The notes under the pieces: generated by a model
What the model was told of the DNA's origin: nothing
Database searches by the model: none
What the model saw: the letters and a program-made list of their open reading frames with translations, nothing else
Shown: positions 1 through 9,709 of the stretch, piece by piece
Layout: every line of letters starts with the position of its first letter
Position numbering within the stretch: the stretch's first letter is position 1
Made by a program: the position numbers and the translations under genes
IMG/VR virus record: IMGVR_UViG_3300003962_000013
Location: 32,001 to 96,000 of that record
Reading direction: 5' to 3' (one strand)
Length of the DNA: 64,000 bases
From: a virus
Lineage: Duplodnaviria > Caudoviricetes

Positions 1-1234
1 TTAATTTATACTTAGTGAATACTGAATTAATTTTGGGTAAAATTTGATCTTCTTCACTATAATCAATTAATATAGAATCATATGTGTATAAAACTATTTT
101 TGATTGTTTTTTACTTAATAATTTAATTATATCCCATAATATGAGAGTATTTGTAGATGTCTCTAAATTTTGTAAATAATAATTAAATAATTTGGTTGGA
201 TTAATATCTTTTAAATTTTTATCAAATTTGTGTCCTGAAATAGAACATGATATATATCCATTTGTATTAAATTCTTCCCATAATTTATTTATATATTGTT
301 GAATTAATTTAAAGAATTCTATATGTTGATATTCTTTATATATTCCACCATATAATTGTTTGAACATTAATATTTTAGCTTCTTCAGTACTAATATTTGC
401 TTCTTTAGCAAAATAACTGTATGGAGTTTCATCATTAAAATCATACCCTATTAATTGTGAAGCCAATACAGGATGATATGAATTAATATCTATTTCTATT
501 AAATAATCATTCTCAGGAATAAATGCTTCTCTACATCCATTATCTTTTACAAGTGCTGCAAAATTAATCCCATTAAAACTATTAGAAGGCCGTCCGGTTG
601 TAGTATGTAAGTTATACTTGGAATATATTTTGTTATCAAATATAGAATATAATTCATTTTGAGGGGTAAAATATTGGTTAAAAATAGTTTTATCAATTTT
701 AATACCATTTTTTTCTATGGCAAAGAATATACTGGATAATTTAATATGGAATTTTGAATTATCAAGTTTAAGGCAATAAGGTTTTATTTTTTCAAAAATT
801 AATTCACATTTTTCATAATGTTTAACTAGAGGTATAATAGTATTAATATTAGATAAATTATCAAATTTTTGGTAAAAAAAGTTATAAACATTCAATTCAG
901 GTTCATCAATTTTAGGTGAACCAAATGATATATCTATTGTATTTTTAATAGGAAAATCATATATAAATGATTTTCTGTCCCTTACATAAATTTCCTCGAA
1001 TGAAAGAAGAAAATCGGTTATATCAATTTTATTAATTGAAAGAGCTTCAGTATGATTAATACATAATATATATCCTTTATCATTATTTAGTGGTTTCAAA
1101 TAAAGAAGAGATACATCATTAAGGGCAGGGTGTACATTATCATTAAAATATATTGGTTCTACAAATACTTTTTTATAGTTTTTACCCAATAATAAATTTA
1201 ATTGATCATATGTTTCAACAATAAAAAATAACAT
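1..1234 (-). CDS. Family A DNA polymerase-like protein, compact; runs off the left edge
   Basis: Not in the ORF track. Manual translation from ATG at 1234 (MLFFIVETYDQ...) stays open to base 1. It contains IEKNGIKID, YNLHTTTGRPS, motif A IEIDINSYHP, motif B AKILMFKQLYGG and motif C LYTYDSILID. Confidence 0.8.
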   Translation of the reverse strand, partial: MLFFIVETYDQLNLLLGKNYKKVFVEPIYFNDNVHPALNDVSLLYLKPLNNDKGYILCINHTEALSINKIDITDFLLSFEEIYVRDRKSFIYDFPIKNTIDISFGSPKIDEPELNVYNFFYQKFDNLSNINTIIPLVKHYEKCELIFEKIKPYCLKLDNSKFHIKLSSIFFAIEKNGIKIDKTIFNQYFTPQNELYSIFDNKIYSKYNLHTTTGRPSNSFNGINFAALVKDNGCREAFIPENDYLIEIDINSYHPVLASQLIGYDFNDETPYSYFAKEANISTEEAKILMFKQLYGGIYKEYQHIEFFKLIQQYINKLWEEFNTNGYISCSISGHKFDKNLKDINPTKLFNYYLQNLETSTNTLILWDIIKLLSKKQSKIVLYTYDSILIDYSEEDQILPKINSVFTKYKL

Positions 1235-1291
1235 AACCTTTTTAATTTAAATTAATATAATAATAAATTTTTAAATTCTCAATCTTAAATT

Positions 1292-1370
1292 CAAAAAAGA
1301 AAACACCCAGATAGCGAGTCTTGAGTGTTTTCAGATAGCCGAAGCTATAACGGTCCTAATCCGTATGTCT
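1292..1370 (-). ncRNA. Candidate structured small RNA with segments antisense to 23S rRNA helix 69 and the following nucleotides
   Basis: Minus strand reads TTAGGACCGTT, then ATAGC-TTCG-GCTAT (UUCG tetraloop hairpin), then hairpin GAAAACACTCAAGA-CTCGCTA-TCTGGGTGTTTTC and a U tract. Plus strand 1338-1359 matches 23S GCCGTAACTATAACGGTCCTAA at 20/22. Confidence 0.5.
1293..1332 (-). terminator. Rho-independent terminator ending the tail/baseplate operon
   Basis: 13-bp stem (one bulge, one G:U) followed by a run of T on the minus strand. Confidence 0.75.
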
Positions 1371-1976
1371 TTATTTATAGTATTTTACAAAATCATTTTT
1401 TAAATATTCTACTAACATTGGGAAATTACCTTGAGTAGATACTAATTGAGTAATATTTTTGTTAGTTTTATATACTTGTTCTTTATCTCCTGTTAATTGC
1501 CAAGGTATATTAAAAGGTCTATATAATTGGTAAAGTATAGTAGAATCTTTTGCTACTAATTTATCATAGGTTTCTTTATTTATTTCAATATATATAATTT
1601 CATTAGATTTTTTACAAAAATATCTTCTGTATTCTCCATTTGTGTAATCTTGTTCTGTTGGGATATTTGGAGAATATAAAGGTAAATATGTAACTTTAAG
1701 TGAATCTATATTTTTAATTTCATCATATTTACTGAAATAATTAACTTTATTAACTGGAGAAGGATTGTTAGGGTTATTAAAAGTATCATTTATAGGATCT
1801 TTAAATTCTACAATTTCTTGAGTAGGTGTATCTTGGGGAGTTTTACCAGTAAAAAATTGTCCTTTGGAAGTTTTCCAATAATATCCTTTATATGGGTTAA
1901 AAGTATTTAAATATACAAATGTTTCACCATTAGTATATAAATTAGTTGTTATCTGGGATAAAGGATAATACGCCAT
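1371..1976 (-). CDS. Hypothetical protein, probably baseplate-associated
   Basis: ORF track gives 1371..2021; the ATG of MAYYP at 1976 is the likelier start because it avoids overlap with the hub gene. Confidence 0.6.
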   Translation of the reverse strand: MAYYPLSQITTNLYTNGETFVYLNTFNPYKGYYWKTSKGQFFTGKTPQDTPTQEIVEFKDPINDTFNNPNNPSPVNKVNYFSKYDEIKNIDSLKVTYLPLYSPNIPTEQDYTNGEYRRYFCKKSNEIIYIEINKETYDKLVAKDSTILYQLYRPFNIPWQLTGDKEQVYKTNKNITQLVSTQGNFPMLVEYLKNDFVKYYK

Positions 1977-1987
1977 ATTAATAAATA

Positions 1988-4900
1988 TTAGATAGACCCC
2001 CAATATTCCCAATGCCAACATTCATCAACACCATTTCCATCAGATAATCTATATGGATTATACCATCCAAATTTTGGACCATTTTCACTCATCCATTTAT
2101 ACAGTGGATTATTTTGTCTTACTAATGAATTAACATATGGTGCACCAGATCCTCCAACTGCTTGATATAATTCAGATACATCAAATGCCCCCGCCCATCC
2201 ATGTGGAGATGAACCAGGAGATGATACTGTATTACCTGATCCTAGATTTGATTGGTGTTGTCTACTTCTATATGCTGAACCTAATGTCCAATTAAATCCT
2301 GCTGCTTTAGCGGAATTGTAAAAAGATATATATGATTTGGCTGCTATTGGGTGTAATCTCCAATACCCATCAGGGTAATATATTTTATTAGCTGATGGAG
2401 GGAGGAAAGTTAATTTTTGTAACACAGATGAATCATTAATATTTAATAATCCGTTTTGTTTTCCTAAGGATTTAATATATTTAGCTAAATCAGAATTATC
2501 ATATGGTAATGCTCCTACTTTGTTATTAGAAGGAATAATAATAGGTTGAGATGTTACATCACTATTTTGACCGGTTGAAGTTAAATTTGGAGAGGTATTT
2601 TCATCTAATACTCCTGAAGCTATACAATATGATTCTAACTTAGTATACCATTTATTATTAGATACTTCATGAGAGATATTTTTAATTAAAAATTTAACTA
2701 CATTAGGATAATTCGATGGTAAATAAGAAGTATCAATAGTAAATTGCTGATTAATTTTCATTCCTGAGATACCATCCATTGTTAAAGATAAATTAAAGGG
2801 GATAAATCCTGTACTTGGGGATGCAGTGTTTGATTGTTGAGGATTATTTAAATTATTTATTCGTTCTTTAACTTTAACTATTTGTTGTTTTAATTGAATA
2901 ATGTTTGTTAATGTATCTTTATAAGTATCTATTTCTTCAACATTAAGTTCTTGGAGAGTATCATAATTTGAAGATTTTGTAGGACTTAATGTTTTTAAAA
3001 AGGTAGTATATTCAAAATAAATTTTACCTAACTTATTAGATAATTCTTCATATTCCTTAGAAGAAGAAATAGAAGTTGATATATTAGATATATTATTTGA
3101 TTCTGAGAAACTACCGTTGGTTACTGTGTTTTTATATCTATCTTCTAATCCTTTATTTAATTTAGATAATGCTGTGTCATTTTCTCCTACAACAGTCCCA
3201 TTTGCTGCAGCTCCAACTGTTATTATTGTAGAAAATTCTGGGGTTAATTCTGTTGTGAATGAAAAATCTTTTATAAATCCAGCGGTTCCATTATTTCCAT
3301 TATATCCATATAATTCAAAATATGCTGGTTCTGTTGATAAGCTACTATTTTCTATTGATTTATATTGGATTCCTTTATCTTTATAATAATTAATTACCTT
3401 ATCCAAATTAGGAAGAGGATTTTTATCTATTATTTTAACAGTATTAGTAGTTTCATCTATAAACACATCTAAATCATTTATTCCCCCCAATGCTGTGTTT
3501 ACACCTTGTAATATTCCTTGTAAAAAATCAATTAATGAAACTTTATTTTTATCATCTTTTAATTCATCTATTTTATTTAAGATAAAAGTGAAATTAAGAT
3601 ATATATTCATTATATCTCCATAATCTGTATTTGGAATAGATGATTTTATATCTTGAAATATAAATGGTTCACATCCAGGTGCATATACAAAATTAGCATT
3701 ATCAATTTTAGATTCAATTGAAAATAAATTATATGTAGTAGACGAGTCTAACATTTGTAATGTTTTATTAACAACACATATCCTTGGATCTACACTGATT
3801 TGAAGAGGATCTACATACATAAGATTAGTTCCTGATTCAAAATCAAATTTTAATCCGGGGATGAAGTTATTGTTATCATTAGATACTTGAATCATTATTA
3901 CATTTTGAATAAATTGTAAAAGTGTTCCTAGTCTTACATAATACTGCCATTCATCTTTATAATTATCCCATTTGATGGAAACAGCATCTCTATGTCCTTT
4001 ATCAAATAATGTGGAAGATATCTTAAGATTTTGGTTATTATATTCTTCTATAAATTTATTCTGGTTTTTTTGGATTTGAGAATTTATTATAGGAATAGAT
4101 GTATAATAAGAATTTGCTTTTTCTGGGACTGTTACTTTAAATCTAACTCCTGCAGATAAATTTTCTGGTAATGGTGATAACAAATTTGATATATCAAAAG
4201 CGACATCTGGAATCCATGAAGATTTTGGGTTTGTTTCTTCTTTAACATCAGCTAATTGAAATTTTAAGAAATAGAGAAAACTTCCTATAGTGTGTTTAGA
4301 AGCATATAAATCTATTAAATCTACAGTTGATAATTCTTCTGTTGATGCTGATTTTTCTTGCTCATCTTTAATAGAAATAAAAGTTCCATCTGTTTCTAGT
4401 AAAGTATTTATTTTTAAACTTTCAATAATATCTCCAATACTAGATAAACTAATAGTTATATCATAGCTTCCATCAGGTATAAATGACCAATGAAAATTAG
4501 TAACTTTAGCAAACATCGCATCATAGTTACCATTTGTTAATAATCTTTGGTCATGGATTTGTTTTAATAAAACATCATAATTACCAGCTCCATTTAAAAA
4601 AACATTATCTAAACTATTATTTGAATTTTTTTGTAAAATTCCTTTATTATCAAAATACATTGTATTTCCCCATTCTAATAGAACTGAGAATCCTAAACGT
4701 AAATAAAGTATATCGATTATTTCAAATTGGGTTTTATTAAATGCTTTTAGTTTAACTTCTGCTCTTCTTAATGAACCTCTATTTTCATGGCTAACAGATA
4801 TAGATTGAATACCCATCATTGGGCGTAAACCAAATTCTGTACCTCCAATACCATAAGCTGAATCTCCTCCTGATAATAAATTTGACTCAGTTATTCCACT

Positions 4901-5206
4901 TCTAGAAAACATGTTTCCACCATTATATTCACTGGTTCCATTAAATAAAACATATTTCTGAGCTAATCCATTTCCAACTAAACCATTTTCAAGGGTGAGT
5001 TGTTTTACATTTTGACTATTTATTAGTTTAGGGTCTCTTATAAAAACAGATGACATTAATTTACACCAAGATGTATTTGCATTTAAAAATGATATTTCAT
5101 CAGGTGTTCTGGAAGTACCTTTAGCATATCCTGATCCGTAAGCTTTTTGTCTTACTGAGATTTGATCTGTAATTTCTTTAGGGAATCCTTCTCCAAAAAT
5201 ATTCAT
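1988..5206 (-). CDS. Baseplate hub / tail-associated lysin with C-terminal M15 (VanY-like) Zn peptidase
   Basis: 1072 aa; C-terminal SAYRS...SSPHGWAGAFD...ECWHWEY motifs; lies downstream of the tape measure gene. Confidence 0.7.
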   Translation of the reverse strand: MNIFGEGFPKEITDQISVRQKAYGSGYAKGTSRTPDEISFLNANTSWCKLMSSVFIRDPKLINSQNVKQLTLENGLVGNGLAQKYVLFNGTSEYNGGNMFSRSGITESNLLSGGDSAYGIGGTEFGLRPMMGIQSISVSHENRGSLRRAEVKLKAFNKTQFEIIDILYLRLGFSVLLEWGNTMYFDNKGILQKNSNNSLDNVFLNGAGNYDVLLKQIHDQRLLTNGNYDAMFAKVTNFHWSFIPDGSYDITISLSSIGDIIESLKINTLLETDGTFISIKDEQEKSASTEELSTVDLIDLYASKHTIGSFLYFLKFQLADVKEETNPKSSWIPDVAFDISNLLSPLPENLSAGVRFKVTVPEKANSYYTSIPIINSQIQKNQNKFIEEYNNQNLKISSTLFDKGHRDAVSIKWDNYKDEWQYYVRLGTLLQFIQNVIMIQVSNDNNNFIPGLKFDFESGTNLMYVDPLQISVDPRICVVNKTLQMLDSSTTYNLFSIESKIDNANFVYAPGCEPFIFQDIKSSIPNTDYGDIMNIYLNFTFILNKIDELKDDKNKVSLIDFLQGILQGVNTALGGINDLDVFIDETTNTVKIIDKNPLPNLDKVINYYKDKGIQYKSIENSSLSTEPAYFELYGYNGNNGTAGFIKDFSFTTELTPEFSTIITVGAAANGTVVGENDTALSKLNKGLEDRYKNTVTNGSFSESNNISNISTSISSSKEYEELSNKLGKIYFEYTTFLKTLSPTKSSNYDTLQELNVEEIDTYKDTLTNIIQLKQQIVKVKERINNLNNPQQSNTASPSTGFIPFNLSLTMDGISGMKINQQFTIDTSYLPSNYPNVVKFLIKNISHEVSNNKWYTKLESYCIASGVLDENTSPNLTSTGQNSDVTSQPIIIPSNNKVGALPYDNSDLAKYIKSLGKQNGLLNINDSSVLQKLTFLPPSANKIYYPDGYWRLHPIAAKSYISFYNSAKAAGFNWTLGSAYRSRQHQSNLGSGNTVSSPGSSPHGWAGAFDVSELYQAVGGSGAPYVNSLVRQNNPLYKWMSENGPKFGWYNPYRLSDGNGVDECWHWEYWGSI

Positions 5207-5533
5207 CTATAAATTATTTAAATTTTTAAAACTATTTAAAACACTAACATAATTTGCAGGAATACGGATTTGAATTCCTTCAGGTATTATTAATGAATCT
5301 TGTGATAAATCAGAGGGTAATGATGTTCCAGCTGTAGCTGTGTTAGCAATAGATATTATCCACCAAAGTGATTGGTCACCATAGTATTGATTTGCTAATA
5401 TATCAAATCTATCTCCTTGAGTAGCATAAACATAAATATCTTCATCCGAAAGGGGAATTTCAGGATATTTAGTTGTTTGATATGCTAATTTATTATCAAT
5501 TTTTATATTAGGTATGGATTGATATCTATTCAT
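5207..5533 (-). CDS. LysM-like baseplate protein (gp53 / tail X-like)
   Basis: GDRFDILANQYYGDQSLWWIISIAN...IPEGIQIRIP signature. Confidence 0.75.
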   Translation of the reverse strand: MNRYQSIPNIKIDNKLAYQTTKYPEIPLSDEDIYVYATQGDRFDILANQYYGDQSLWWIISIANTATAGTSLPSDLSQDSLIIPEGIQIRIPANYVSVLNSFKNLNNL

Positions 5534-5535
5534 TT

Positions 5536-7218
5536 TTAAGAATCATAGTTATTAGAGTTTATTCCTTTTCCATTGGATAAAGCTATATAACGCTCAGGAC
5601 CATAATTTGTTAAGATTCCATTTTTATCAAAAATATTTTGTTGAGATCTTGGAACAAAATTGTGAATTGGGATGAAATTAAATCCAGTTACTTTAATCAA
5701 ATGAGGAAGTTCCTTAACAGATTCATCGTAATTCCCTTCATCATTTATTCCTATTTCCCATGTTGCGTTATCATCATTCATTTCATAATTAAACCCAGTT
5801 ATAATACCCGGTTGTTCATAAAGATACCCACCAATGGTTAAAGTAATTATATTTCCTCTCATATAACCACTATTACTATAATCTGGAGCACAAACTGAAG
5901 CTAAATAGTTTAATTTTTTATACATTGGAATTAATTCTATCTTTGATTGAGCTGCTACAGTCCAAGATAATGAAATTTTTCTATCAAAACCAGCATAAGT
6001 ATAAAATTTTTCTCCTCTTCCTATATATTGAGTTGAATTCCAATCAGATGAATACCCATCAGATATATTGTTAAGGAAAGCTCTAAAATGAATATAATTT
6101 TTAGGTATATTTTCATTTCCTGTCAAATCATAAACTCCTATTCTAAATTTTATTAGGTCATTTACGGGTTTATCAGTAGTTATAGCAGCTGTTTCACTTT
6201 GGTAAATAGGTAATACATTTATTTTATCATACGAATTTTCACTTGCTGCTCCTTTAAAACTTCCACTAGTATATGATGATATGTTTTTACCAAAATCATT
6301 TCCTGGGTCTCCTAAATTTACTCTTTGTTCTATATTTTTTTTAGTATAATTAGGGGCAGCCGTTATTAATTCATTTCTTTTTCTCAATAATGATCTAAAA
6401 TCTCCTGGAGTTGTTGTGGCTCCATATTTACCATTTTGAATTAAAAATGATTCACCATCTGATTGTGGAGTTGTGGAAATAGTAGATAATTCATTTTGAG
6501 TATATGTAGTGGTTCTATTACTATTAGGAAATACCCCAGCAACAGTTGCATTAGATATAATTCTTTGATCTGCAAATCTTATATTTGTGTTTCCTATACC
6601 TAATAATGAGTTGGGACCTCCAATATATGTTAAAATATTAGTAGATAAAGGTGAAATGCCTGTTGTTATAGGATTGTATGATAATTCATCTGTTATTTTC
6701 GATCTAGTTAATCTAACTAATCTATTAGTAGATGTTTCTTCAATTAGTAAATCTGATGGGATTGAGCTTCCTACTTTTACAATATCAGAATATGTTCTAA
6801 TAGAACCTGGTGTGTCAGGAATTGGATTAAAACCTTGTTTATTAAAATGTAATCCAAAAGCACTAACACTCGCTTGAGCTAATGTAGATAATGGGGTATA
6901 TATACCTTCGTTTAATATTCCAGTACTAGATTGAGTACGAACAGCAGTTCTTGATAATAAGTTTTGTTTGGCTACAAATAATAAACCACTAGGACTTTTT
7001 AAATCATTGAAATATTTAGTTAATCTTAATACATCTTCTGTAGTATTCTTAACAGAATATAATCCACCTCTAAGAATAAAATCTTGATTTGGAATTAAAG
7101 AAGTATCCCCATCTGGAATTGGTGATATGATATATGGTTGGTTACTACTTCCTCCATGTATTCTATCATTACCAAATTTAAGAGATTTAAGATTGGTTTG
7201 TAGGTTTATTAATCCCAT
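5536..7218 (-). CDS. Baseplate / tube-initiator protein
   Basis: FRAFLNNISDGYSSDW...YIGRGEKFYTYAGFDRKISL, typical of contractile-tail tube initiators; gene position. Confidence 0.55.
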   Translation of the reverse strand: MGLINLQTNLKSLKFGNDRIHGGSSNQPYIISPIPDGDTSLIPNQDFILRGGLYSVKNTTEDVLRLTKYFNDLKSPSGLLFVAKQNLLSRTAVRTQSSTGILNEGIYTPLSTLAQASVSAFGLHFNKQGFNPIPDTPGSIRTYSDIVKVGSSIPSDLLIEETSTNRLVRLTRSKITDELSYNPITTGISPLSTNILTYIGGPNSLLGIGNTNIRFADQRIISNATVAGVFPNSNRTTTYTQNELSTISTTPQSDGESFLIQNGKYGATTTPGDFRSLLRKRNELITAAPNYTKKNIEQRVNLGDPGNDFGKNISSYTSGSFKGAASENSYDKINVLPIYQSETAAITTDKPVNDLIKFRIGVYDLTGNENIPKNYIHFRAFLNNISDGYSSDWNSTQYIGRGEKFYTYAGFDRKISLSWTVAAQSKIELIPMYKKLNYLASVCAPDYSNSGYMRGNIITLTIGGYLYEQPGIITGFNYEMNDDNATWEIGINDEGNYDESVKELPHLIKVTGFNFIPIHNFVPRSQQNIFDKNGILTNYGPERYIALSNGKGINSNNYDS

Positions 7219-7221
7219 CTA

Positions 7222-7497
7222 TTATTGGGGTAGATTATTAATATATTGTGTTGGAGTTGCTCCGTTTAAATCTAATTGAGATGGTTGAGGTAATACATTA
7301 TTAACTCCATCATTGTATTGTTGGAAAGCAGTATTTACATCTGTAAAATTTGATCCATTGATGGAATAACCTGGTTGATTACCATCAGTATGTAATTTTG
7401 ATAATTGAGTTGCTCCAGGATTTACTGATGGAGTTGAACCATTACCATATGAAAGTGGTGATCCACCTTGAGTTGTTAATTTGTCTAAAAGTCCCAT
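7222..7497 (-). CDS. Small virion structural protein
   Basis: 91 aa ORF with the late promoter motif upstream. Confidence 0.55.
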   Translation of the reverse strand: MGLLDKLTTQGGSPLSYGNGSTPSVNPGATQLSKLHTDGNQPGYSINGSNFTDVNTAFQQYNDGVNNVLPQPSQLDLNGATPTQYINNLPQ

Positions 7498-7510
7498 GTT
7501 ATTTTTTATT

Positions 7511-7518
7511 TATAAATA
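7511..7518 (-). promoter_or_regulatory. Putative late promoter TATTTATA (representative of about 20 intergenic copies)
   Basis: Exact copies in the same orientation at 10819, 12203, 14017, 17487, 23823, 24613, 26081, 30790, 34396, 39963, 45086, 45596, 47422, 50162, 53804, 56506, 59270; one-mismatch copy at 9735; TATGTATA variants at 30150, 41266, 43391. Confidence 0.65.
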
Positions 7519-7525
7519 TTATTAA

Positions 7526-9709
7526 TTATTGAGTTTTATAAGTATTCATAGCAACTGAAGTACCAAATTTAGTACCATTCATACTATTTTCTACTACGGT
7601 TGGTTTAGAATTGGATTTTACTTGTTCTTGACGTAAAGCTTTTAACTCATTAAGTAAAGGAGAAAGATCTTGTTGTGGTTGTTGATTTGGGGAAGATTTT
7701 TTTCCTCCACCTAAATTAGTTCCAGCTATCACTGTATCTTCATTATTTAATGCTATTGAACCTTTAGGTGTAAGTAATGTTCTATCACCATATCCTGGAG
7801 ATATAACGTCATCACCTTTAAACATAGAATATGCTGCAGCACCCACAGAAGCAATGGCTCCAAGTGCTGTAATCCACCCAACAACTGGAACTGCGGCTGC
7901 ACTTTGACCCGCAGCTGCTGAAGCTCCTGCTATTTGTGCTATTGCTGCTTCGCGGGCTTTTTTTCCAAATAGACCCATAGAGGTAATATTTAAAGCTAAA
8001 GATCTAGCTAATTTTCCTCCAGCAATACCTGCAATTGCTGTGAATAATATTTTAATTGATGTAGTGTGGCTTAAAAGTGAAGCTACTAATTCTAATGGGC
8101 CTGCTAATGCTTCACCCATTTTTTCAATAGATTTATTTATACTATCTTGAACAGATAAACGCTTCATATCTTCTAAAGCTACTCCTGATGCTGCAGCTGC
8201 TGCTTCTTCTGTTAAACCATTTTGAAGTTGTTGAGTAAAAATCATTTTTGATAATTCATCTTTACTTAATCCTATGGCATCAGCTATAGCTTGTTGTTGT
8301 ATTCTATTCCCTTTAGAGAAACCACTTATTACAGCTTCATTATTACCTATTTCTTTAGTTAATCCTGCTAAATCATTATTTAATGCTAATAAACGAGCTT
8401 TTTCTAGGTTTAATTGTTGACCCGTCATAAGTTCAGCTGATATTTCTGAATTTATTGAGGATTCAAAATTAAGTAAAGATTCGGCTGTTTTATCTATTTG
8501 TTCTAAGGTTAAACCTAATTTTCTGGCTTCAGTAGCAGCTGCTGCTAGTTTTTCAGGATTACCTCCAAATGTAATAGCAATTGCATTGGATATATTAGTT
8601 ATATCTTTTAATATTTGTTTTTGAGATATAGCTGTTTTATTAGCCTTATTAAAATTACTAACTTGATTTATTATAGTTTTATCAATAGATTTTAATTCTT
8701 TACCATTTATCTTAGAAAACATAGATAAACGACCTGCTTCATTAGCACTAAGACCCATCAATTCAACCAATTCAGTAGCTTCTTGAAGAGTTTCGGGAGT
8801 AAAAATCAAATCTGCTGCTAAACCTAATTCCTTAGTCATAGCAGTAGCTTGTTTAATATAATCTGAAGATGTAATTAGGCTAGTATTGAGAGTATCAATA
8901 TGTGAAATAGATCTTCCTGTTTCTCTAGTAAAATCAGTTTGAGCTTTATTTAATGAGTTAAATCCTCTTACAATAGATGTAACTAAAAATAACATCATAT
9001 TTGATGGATTTAAAATGCCATCTTTAAATTGTATTCCTAAATTTTTAACTCCAGCTCTTAATCCTTGAATTCCACTTTGAGTTTTAATAGTTTCTTCTCG
9101 TGCGGACTTTAATGCTTTTTCTGTGTCTATTAAATCACCTATTATTGGGATCTTACCCATACCTTTTAGTATACCTGAAAATACTCCTAATTCTTTATCA
9201 GCACCTTTAATAGAATTTTCTATAGATTCAAGTGTTGATTTTTGTTGTTTTAAAGGTTCAATAGATTCGTATGCTAATTCATTAAAATTCTTTTGAAGTT
9301 GGATTATAAGTTTTTCCTTCTCAATTCTTTCGTTTTCACTTATAGTAATATCTTCATTTAATTGTTTTTGAATACTTCCTATTCTAGTAGTTAATACTTG
9401 TTGTTCAGCTATTTTTTTATTTATCTGAGATTGGATATCTTTAGAAGTAATCGAATTGTTATTTATTTTAACCTGATTCTTAACTAAATCTTCAGTAATT
9501 TTGCTTAAAGATTTTACAGATCGATTTATATCTTTATATGTTAAATCAAATGATTTAGCGCTTGATGTTCCTTCTCGTATTTCATCAACTACGTCTGATA
9601 ATCTACTAGTAAGTTCTCTGAATCCTTCTTCTAAGACTCCAGTAAGTTCACTCATATTCTTAAGTGAATTATTCATTTCTTCAGCTTTATCGTTTGGATT
9701 TTCAGCCAT
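7526..9709 (-). CDS. Tape measure protein
   Basis: 727 aa, helical and Ala/Leu/Lys-rich with hydrophobic segments; follows the tail tube and chaperone genes. Confidence 0.7.
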   Translation of the reverse strand: MAENPNDKAEEMNNSLKNMSELTGVLEEGFRELTSRLSDVVDEIREGTSSAKSFDLTYKDINRSVKSLSKITEDLVKNQVKINNNSITSKDIQSQINKKIAEQQVLTTRIGSIQKQLNEDITISENERIEKEKLIIQLQKNFNELAYESIEPLKQQKSTLESIENSIKGADKELGVFSGILKGMGKIPIIGDLIDTEKALKSAREETIKTQSGIQGLRAGVKNLGIQFKDGILNPSNMMLFLVTSIVRGFNSLNKAQTDFTRETGRSISHIDTLNTSLITSSDYIKQATAMTKELGLAADLIFTPETLQEATELVELMGLSANEAGRLSMFSKINGKELKSIDKTIINQVSNFNKANKTAISQKQILKDITNISNAIAITFGGNPEKLAAAATEARKLGLTLEQIDKTAESLLNFESSINSEISAELMTGQQLNLEKARLLALNNDLAGLTKEIGNNEAVISGFSKGNRIQQQAIADAIGLSKDELSKMIFTQQLQNGLTEEAAAAASGVALEDMKRLSVQDSINKSIEKMGEALAGPLELVASLLSHTTSIKILFTAIAGIAGGKLARSLALNITSMGLFGKKAREAAIAQIAGASAAAGQSAAAVPVVGWITALGAIASVGAAAYSMFKGDDVISPGYGDRTLLTPKGSIALNNEDTVIAGTNLGGGKKSSPNQQPQQDLSPLLNELKALRQEQVKSNSKPTVVENSMNGTKFGTSVAMNTYKTQ

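Follow-up and report, generated by a model that had tools for sequence, protein, structure and literature searches.

Plasmids carry antisense RNAs that present their pairing bases in loops (CopA/CopT of R1, RNA I/RNA II of ColE1, Sok/hok), and in group II introns the EBS2 and EBS1 sequences pair with IBS2 and IBS1, respectively. We know of no sRNA of the CpxQ/SroC type that targets rRNA or has a bipartite, loop-borne seed, and, to our knowledge, no box C/D or H/ACA guide system is known in bacteria or phages. Known phage routes to host translation run through tRNAs, ribosomal proteins and initiation factors. Within the large ribosomal subunit, the helix 69 region forms intersubunit bridge B2a and is a contact region for recycling and release factors. 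According to the citation of Kulik et al. (2017) in PMC7038079, a synthetic PNA directed against helix 69 inhibits E. coli growth, so that, as far as that account goes, antisense access to the helix 69 region is possible in cells. In the literature searched, the seed sequences of the phage RNA described below were found only as I-CeuI sites or primers, and no phage RNA antisense to 23S rRNA was found.

A three-hairpin RNA behind a phage structural module

The window (the whole stretch of DNA that was analysed, 64,000 nucleotides) comprises bases 32001-96000 of a 114.8-kb IMG/VR virus record that is ~71% complete and has a G+C content of ~28%. Its minus strand encodes a myovirus structural module (terminase, portal, major head protein, tail sheath and a 1072-aa VanY-domain protein), and the capsid protein places Flavobacterium phage immuto (59% identity) closest among cultured phages. 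The 1072-aa protein (1988-5206, minus strand) closes the tail module, carries a VanY (D-Ala-D-Ala carboxypeptidase) domain at its C-terminus (residues 950-1070) and is probably a tail-associated cell-wall hydrolase. Outside the window, the record contains 20 tRNA genes in a minus-strand array (109856-114700), to one of which (110389-110462) ARAGORN assigns a four-base anticodon, gcaa.

The RNA occupies a 136-nt spacer (1235-1370) between the gene for a 216-aa protein and the next minus-strand gene (start 1234), and its parts are listed in Table 1. It is single-copy in the 114.8-kb record, scores 88.2 bits (E 6e-20) against R1, the covariance model of its family, and has a predicted fold energy of -20.5 kcal/mol (z -2.6). 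A preliminary description of the locus, made from the sequence alone, had read UUAGGACCGUU as a free single strand followed by a cUUCGg hairpin and a terminator hairpin with a second complementary segment in its loop. Both hairpins are present in the predicted fold, whereas the supposed single strand is in fact partly helical: its ACGG pairs with CCGU as P1 in the MFE and centroid folds and by family covariation, with compensatory changes at two of the four pairs (ACAG/CUGU in locus L095, ACGA/UCGU in L285). All nine modelled pairs of P3 covary, the stem sequences are unrelated in other members, and the loop carries UCGCUAUC. In this copy P3 is a stable hairpin with the U tract directly behind it, as in an intrinsic terminator; the consensus terminator scan did not call it because the 12-nt loop exceeds that scan's 8-nt limit.

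The seed block UUAGGACCGU consists of loop 1 and the 3' strand of P1, and the block UCGCUAYC sits in loop 3. Other roles for the loops were considered and rejected. Loop 1 and loop 3 have no complementarity to each other; pairing of the loop 3 GCUAY with the 5' strand of P2 is possible in the AUAGC-stem subfamily only and cannot explain conservation across the family; and mimicry of a tRNA-Leu(UAG) anticodon arm by the loop AUUAGGA conflicts with a loop length of 6-9 nt across members.

Table 1. Features of the RNA, its surroundings and sequences elsewhere that bear the same 23S stretch. Plain coordinates are window positions; entries with an L prefix refer to other viral contigs.
Feature	Position	Strand	Description
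Whole RNA element	1292..1371	-	~75 nt, three hairpins and U tract; end-to-end match to family covariance model
Hairpin P1	1350..1364	-	ACGG (1364-1361) with CCGU (1353-1350), 7-nt loop AUUAGGA (1360-1354); MFE and centroid fold
Hairpin P2	1335..1348	-	AUAGC / UUCG tetraloop / GCUAU; compensatory changes at 5/5 pairs in family
Hairpin P3	1299..1332	-	GAAAACACUCA (1332-1322) with UGGGUGUUUUC (1309-1299), 11 pairs, 12-nt loop (1321-1310)
U tract UUUUUU	1293..1298	-	3' of P3; read from sequence
Seed A, UUAGGACCGUUAUAG	1345..1359	-	Complementary to 23S 1928-1914; family-invariant part 1359-1350 (UUAGGACCGU) faces 1928-1919
Seed B, UCGCUAUCU	1309..1317	-	In P3 loop; complementary to 23S 1936-1928, U opposite G1930; family invariant UCGCUAYC
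Upstream ORF	1371..2021	-	216 aa, without family; final gene of structural module; UAA stop (1373-1371) abuts RNA
Promoter-like site TTGAGA-17-TATATT	1254..1282	-	Between RNA and next gene; consensus match only
Linear antisense with terminator	L054:654-670; L290, L291, L292, L294, L304, L309, L310, L312, L322, L328		Linear-antisense scan
Linear antisense with terminator, further	L293/L321/L326, L302, L303, L307		Linear-antisense scan
23S-sense (AUA)ACGGUCCUAAGGUAGCGA in very large tRNA arrays	L287:1525-1541, L297:240-256, L299:436-452, L327:2972-2988, L330:2984-3000		Same strand as tRNAs, 5/5

Family conservation and complementarity to 23S rRNA

The preliminary description had aligned plus-strand 1338-1359 (GCCGAAGCTATAACGGTCCTAA) with E. 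coli 23S rRNA 1907-1928 and plus-strand 1309-1317 (AGATAGCGA) with 1928-1936. These alignments were reproduced at 20/22 and 8/9 identities, respectively; the 15 contiguous identities of the first correspond exactly to window 1345-1359 and 23S 1914-1928 (numbering checked on rrlH), and the sole difference in the second places a U opposite G1930. All flanking ORFs lie on the minus strand, so the transcript is antisense to 23S, as had been proposed. The warning that a bare 15-mer can arise by chance was well founded: 34 of 200 composition-matched shuffles of the window (17%) contained an exact match of at least 15 nt to E. coli 16S or 23S. The significance of the match derives from its conservation across the family and not from the 15-mer alone.

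An exact scan of 2.9 million viral contigs with the 16-mer TTAGGACCGTTATAGC returned 47 loci. Two more scans, each leaving one seed free, added many members, including some with unrelated P2 helix sequences, and covariance model R1 aligned 75 distinct members, which puts the family size at at least 75. The preliminary description had suggested looking for the element in related phages, in a covariance model and in Rfam. In ~44 of the 47 loci the complete architecture recurs on P3 stems that differ widely in sequence; the stems covary around unchanging complementary bases, which is the support that the description had asked for; and the element belongs to no Rfam 15 family. At gathering thresholds Rfam 15 gave no match in the whole window, and in E-value mode on 1200-1450 the sole match was STnc150 (9.8 bits, E 6.4).

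In the 75-member alignment, standard pairs fill 98% of pair cells (74% in shuffles) and compensatory changes occur at 16 of 18 pairs (P1 2/4, P2 5/5, P3 9/9). None of 500 shuffles reaches any covariation measure, and sliding the partners by one to three columns lowers pairing to 32-50%. G-U cells number 40 vs 3 A-C cells, and a U-rich tail follows P3 on its 3' side in 52 of 75 members, the U tract being lacking in the other 23; together, the G-U excess and the U-rich tails establish the strand antisense to 23S as the one that is read. The upstream gene or the flanking tRNAs always run in the same direction as the element. The RNA family is real, widespread, undescribed, structured and phage-borne.

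At positions outside the helices, at least 90% of members share (A)UACGG, UUAGGA, CC-GU and UCGCUA, the last followed by Y and then usually by C. The block UCGCUAYC faces 23S 1936-1929, and at each seed position 68-75 of the 75 members have a base that pairs with its 23S counterpart. UUAGGA is found in 75/75 members, including 21 from searches that left seed A free, among which the only changes to CCG are two C-to-U substitutions. With seed B unconstrained, UCGCU(A/G/C)Y is present in 26/26 members from the 16-mer scan and in 5/5 found by protein synteny; the P1/L1 scan, likewise with seed B unconstrained (n=26), gave 20 with UCGCU(A/G/C)Y, three with CCGCUAUC and three with UCGCAACC. The seeds are thus fixed also where the search left them free and are no artefact of the search patterns.

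Opposite G1930 there is a C in 50 members and a U in 25, and opposite G1929 a C in 45 and a U in 23. In the 3' strand of P1 only two changes occur, both from C to U and facing G1921 and G1922, and each has its compensating change within P1; A is replaced by G opposite U1931 in two members. This seed variation is of the type permitted by RNA-RNA pairing to a fixed target (wobble). Seed B contains an internal mismatch in some members (UCGCAACC, UCGCUCC). The P1-P2 junction is variable (none, U, A, G, UC or UA), and with these indels pairing does not in general run on unbroken past 1919. One subfamily (L187, L192, L210, L213, L227, L263, L277, L278) has a P3 without U's and, next to it, a separate hairpin AAAGCUUGC...GCAGGCUUUU as terminator; the only non-wobble variants of seed B, CCGCUAUC and UCGCAACC, also belong to this subfamily.

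The conserved blocks jointly complement a contiguous stretch, 23S 1919-1936, made up of the helix 69 3' strand and the formally unpaired linker that leads to helix 70. The Rfam bacterial LSU consensus places helix 69 at 1906-1924, leaves positions 1930-1934 unpaired and, within 1925-1929, draws only the closing pair C1925-G1929; the 18-nt target is upper case (highly conserved) in the same consensus. The 18-mer is identical in nearly all 23S-bearing genomes among 151 sampled from one phylum, and Flavobacterium johnsoniae 23S likewise has the identical 1919-1936. The idea that the U opposite G1930 tracks variant hosts was rejected, as nearly every copy in the sampled phylum carries G1930; with host G1930 and the 18-mer nearly always unchanged, that U is a wobble and not a host adaptation. 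Complementarity to the helix 69 loop (1914-1918, facing the 5' strand of P2), part of the match as originally reported, is not conserved in the family: P2 covaries freely, and the loop match is therefore limited to the subfamily of this copy.

In E. coli 23S a single perfect site exists for each invariant block (at 1919 and at 1931), 16S has none, and the joint chance of both hitting adjacent perfect sites is 0.8-2.3e-5. No site complementary to both seeds was found elsewhere in the 114.8-kb record. Cofolding with 23S 1900-1950 gave a net -15.6 kcal/mol after unfolding of P1, P2 and helix 69, against -5.1 +/- 2.6 for shuffled RNAs, an energy that is nested and reflects seed A alone, seed B being unable to enter the calculation. 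When the cofold scan was run along 23S, the true site came first only narrowly (-17.5 vs -15.0 kcal/mol elsewhere), and little weight is given to it.

The two segments had been described as permuted relative to a plain antisense copy, and this bipartite layout is real and kept across the family. It bears on a DNA-level origin, which the preliminary description had offered as an alternative: a decoy or target for rDNA-specific homing endonucleases, since the matched sequence overlaps what we take to be the I-CeuI site, or a scar of recombination with rDNA. With the halves permuted and ~30 nt apart there is no contiguous DNA site, what is under selection are RNA helices whose G-U pairs fall on a single strand, the element keeps one orientation with respect to transcription, and the flanks have no similarity to rDNA; the permuted halves and the selection on helices contradict such an origin, which we consider extremely improbable. 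The family, its fold, the strand that is read and the conserved complementarity to 23S 1919-1936 are established by computation.

Distribution and other sequences bearing the same 23S stretch

The RNA had at first been tied to the late operon, a link that is not general: most relatives that share this order of genes have no copy, and only 4 of 38 fetched loci encoding a relative of the 216-aa protein carry it. Elsewhere it is located after a tail tube gene, among replication genes, or in a tRNA-sized slot (69-74 nt) between co-oriented tRNAs. Clustering of flanking ORFs found no shared neighbour protein family across at least four unrelated gene contexts plus tRNA arrays, and the element is therefore a self-contained, mobile module and not a property of this operon. 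Two relatives (L014, L015) that lack the element at its usual place have a weak model match at 2276-2344 (17 bits, E 0.1; GGAUUAGGACC-UAUAGC...GCUAU) upstream of the 216-aa homologue, which may be a decayed or divergent copy.

A pattern scan of ~185,000 bacterial and archaeal species genomes gave two matches, both on MAG contigs. One is a 163-kb phage-like contig (G001:C1, L346) with the element at 127795-127873 between two tRNA genes. On the same strand of that contig, near a tRNA-like 3' end, lies a non-coding 18-mer, ACGATCCTAAGGTAGCTA (145283-145300), which equals the 23S sense sequence with two mismatches and may be due to chance. BLAST with four family variants returned only a metagenomic 735-kb phage (LR756501) and no cultured phage, and neither the covariance model nor the pattern found a copy in Flavobacterium phage immuto. 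Among the public RNA runs listed for window 1-8000, none contained this sequence. The element is dispensable, being missing from most relatives with the same gene order and from the nearest cultured phage.

Besides true rRNA fragments, a scan of viral contigs for linear antisense TCGCTAYCTTAGGACCG revealed several unrelated designs (Table 1), each combining a linear stretch of 19-31 nt, complementary to 23S 1911-1941, with an intrinsic terminator behind it, the terminator sequences being unrelated between groups. The largest of these groups also has a U opposite G1930, as does loop 3 in the window, and the region common to all designs is ~1920-1936. This convergence of unrelated designs is the strongest argument that pairing with 23S may be the selected function.

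The convergence also weighs on the proposal that the RNA is a structured 3'-end element (a terminator, stabiliser or processing signal) whose loops bind a protein and whose complementarity to 23S is coincidental. That proposal would suit the location at gene ends, the U's that usually follow P3, and a 15-mer that alone is within chance. It is unlikely nonetheless, given the chance of ~1e-5 that both blocks perfectly complement adjacent rRNA sites, the wobble type of the seed variation, the existence of unrelated RNAs antisense to the same stretch, and the tRNA-array copies and L187 subfamily in which no U tract directly follows P3. The tRNA-array copies without a U tract further indicate that termination is not the defining role of the family.

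Five viral contigs carry sense-strand copies of AUAACGGUCCUAAGGUAGCGA in the orientation of their tRNAs. The copies are flanked by a conserved GGGAUUAC and, after a hairpin, by a second UAGCGA, and one of the contigs (L287) also has a tmRNA gene. They may represent a sense-strand mimic of the same rRNA site. In three other viral contigs (L288, L296, L298) the rRNA match runs up to ~1920 and is followed by unrelated sequence, a break that could mark the insertion point of an intron or intervening sequence, or a chimeric assembly.

The tRNA-co-oriented sense copies of AUAACGGUCCUAAGGUAGCGA in five contigs raise the possibility that the three-hairpin RNA is a sponge or antidote for an RNA with 23S-sense sequence, either the tRNA-array segments of giant phages or fragments of host 23S. 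We regard this as very unlikely, as no other RNA with this sequence comes close to host 23S in abundance; in addition, no three-hairpin element was present in the fetched stretches, which are parts of contigs only, around the linear-antisense hits.

Proposed action and comparison with known RNA classes

From the conserved complementarity, binding of host 23S rRNA appears the most likely function of the RNA, and on balance we favour it. The RNA would be made as the 3' end of the late structural transcript and act in trans; in other phages the same RNA would be cut out of tRNA arrays. Both loops would nucleate on the single-stranded linker 1925-1936 of a free 50S subunit or of nascent 23S, and the CCGU strand of P1 would then invade helix 69. 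The invariant UUAG of loop 1 is a YUNR motif, and P1 (ACGG/CCGU) shares its four pairs with the inner helix 69 stem (C1908-G1922 through U1911-A1919), so the strand swap would be cheap, with CCGU taking the 3' strand and ACGG the 5' strand. In the subfamily of this copy, P2 would open and the duplex would extend to position 1914. Occlusion or unfolding of the bridge B2a element would alter subunit joining, recycling or 50S assembly, and the phage might gain a block to one of these steps or a timing device for late infection.

In the mature 50S subunit, 1920-1924 are paired in helix 69 and 1925-1936 are packed in tertiary structure at the interface, so access may be limited to nascent rRNA. The model fold also speaks against 23S pairing in that the seeds would be partly sequestered in P1 and the loop, and the permuted order would need a pseudoknot-like complex. 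The main weakness of the model is that a stoichiometric ribosome inhibitor would also harm translation of the phage itself. As a wider and tentative picture, doubtful as a whole, large uncultured phages may use a dedicated RNA to unzip helix 69: its loops would dock on 1925-1936, the strand-swapped P1 would exchange strands, and the central bridge would be lost, withdrawing 50S subunits or nascent 23S. Taken with the unrelated antisense designs and the sense copies of giant phages, this would make the segment a contested target between phages or between phage and host.

The stoichiometry problem would disappear if the RNA were used catalytically, as a guide and not a blocker, its pairing with 23S or rrl bringing in a phage or host protein (a nuclease, RNase III or a modification enzyme). 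The complementarity evidence for such a guide is the same as for a blocker, and PMC6582327 describes an antisense RNA of Helicobacter through which an rRNA precursor acquires a site for RNase III. A guide role nevertheless seems rather unlikely: no partner gene is conserved beside the RNA across at least four gene contexts plus tRNA arrays, the 75-member alignment contains no C/D or H/ACA boxes, and the order of the halves is reversed relative to H/ACA guides and RNase P external guide sequences.

Assignment to known RNA classes was considered and rejected in several cases. For a tRNA or tRNA-like RNA, ARAGORN finds none in the window, the ends of the element are unpaired, and loop 1 has 6-9 nt across members. 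A box C/D guide is contradicted by the lack of conserved C (RUGAUGA) and D (CUGA) boxes in the 75 members, the CUGA after P2 in this copy not being conserved, and a box H/ACA guide by seeds that sit in terminal loops and in the opposite order, with no ACA. An IS110-type bridge RNA would be ~180 nt rather than ~75 nt, with two internal guide loops, and would lie next to a recombinase gene; the neighbours here are tail, replication or exonuclease genes or tRNAs, none of them shared across contexts. As in trans-acting base-pairing sRNAs, the seeds are invariant independently of the covarying P2/P3 scaffold.

If 23S rRNA is the true target, this would be the first natural phage or bacterial RNA known to base-pair with mature or nascent rRNA, and its site is among those parts of the ribosome that are best conserved and most central to function. 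Phage takeover of translation would gain a route by which an RNA acts directly on the ribosome, and the 50S subunit may prove to have a site that is naturally open to antisense pairing. Since nearly all bacteria have the identical target, the idea is directly testable in laboratory strains. Even with a different target, the family of structured phage RNAs is new, large and well supported.

Several described systems share parts of this design. The anti-helix 69 PNA is aimed at the same 23S region, where its binding inhibits bacterial growth, and as far as PMC7038079 describes it differs from the phage RNA in being man-made, linear and directed at the helix 69 hairpin, not at 1919-1936. Archaeal and eukaryotic box C/D and H/ACA guides are likewise small RNAs that pair with rRNA, and those of the H/ACA type are also bipartite; unlike them, the phage RNA has no boxes, k-turn, pseudouridylation pocket or nearby gene for a partner protein. 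Like the 3' UTR sRNAs CpxQ and SroC and the tRNA-spacer RNA 3'ETS-leuZ, it lies between tRNAs or at an operon 3' end, uses one terminator together with the gene upstream of it, and combines an invariant seed with a variable scaffold, whereas RNAs of that type have a single-stranded seed, target mRNAs or sRNAs and usually employ Hfq.

The EBS/IBS pairings of group II introns likewise place separate loops on adjacent target segments, with the same 5'-to-3' order in guide and target, but the EBS loops belong to a ribozyme of several hundred nt that targets its own exons, whereas the phage RNA is ~75 nt and has no ribozyme domains. With CopA-type RNAs it shares hairpin loops that present the recognition bases, the UUAG fitting the YUNR U-turn of fast-pairing antisense loops, and, as proposed here, a route from loop contact to stem invasion. 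CopA-type RNAs are encoded opposite their target, a single mRNA or primer; the phage RNA is encoded in trans, would have an rRNA as its target, and would put two permuted loops on one contiguous site.
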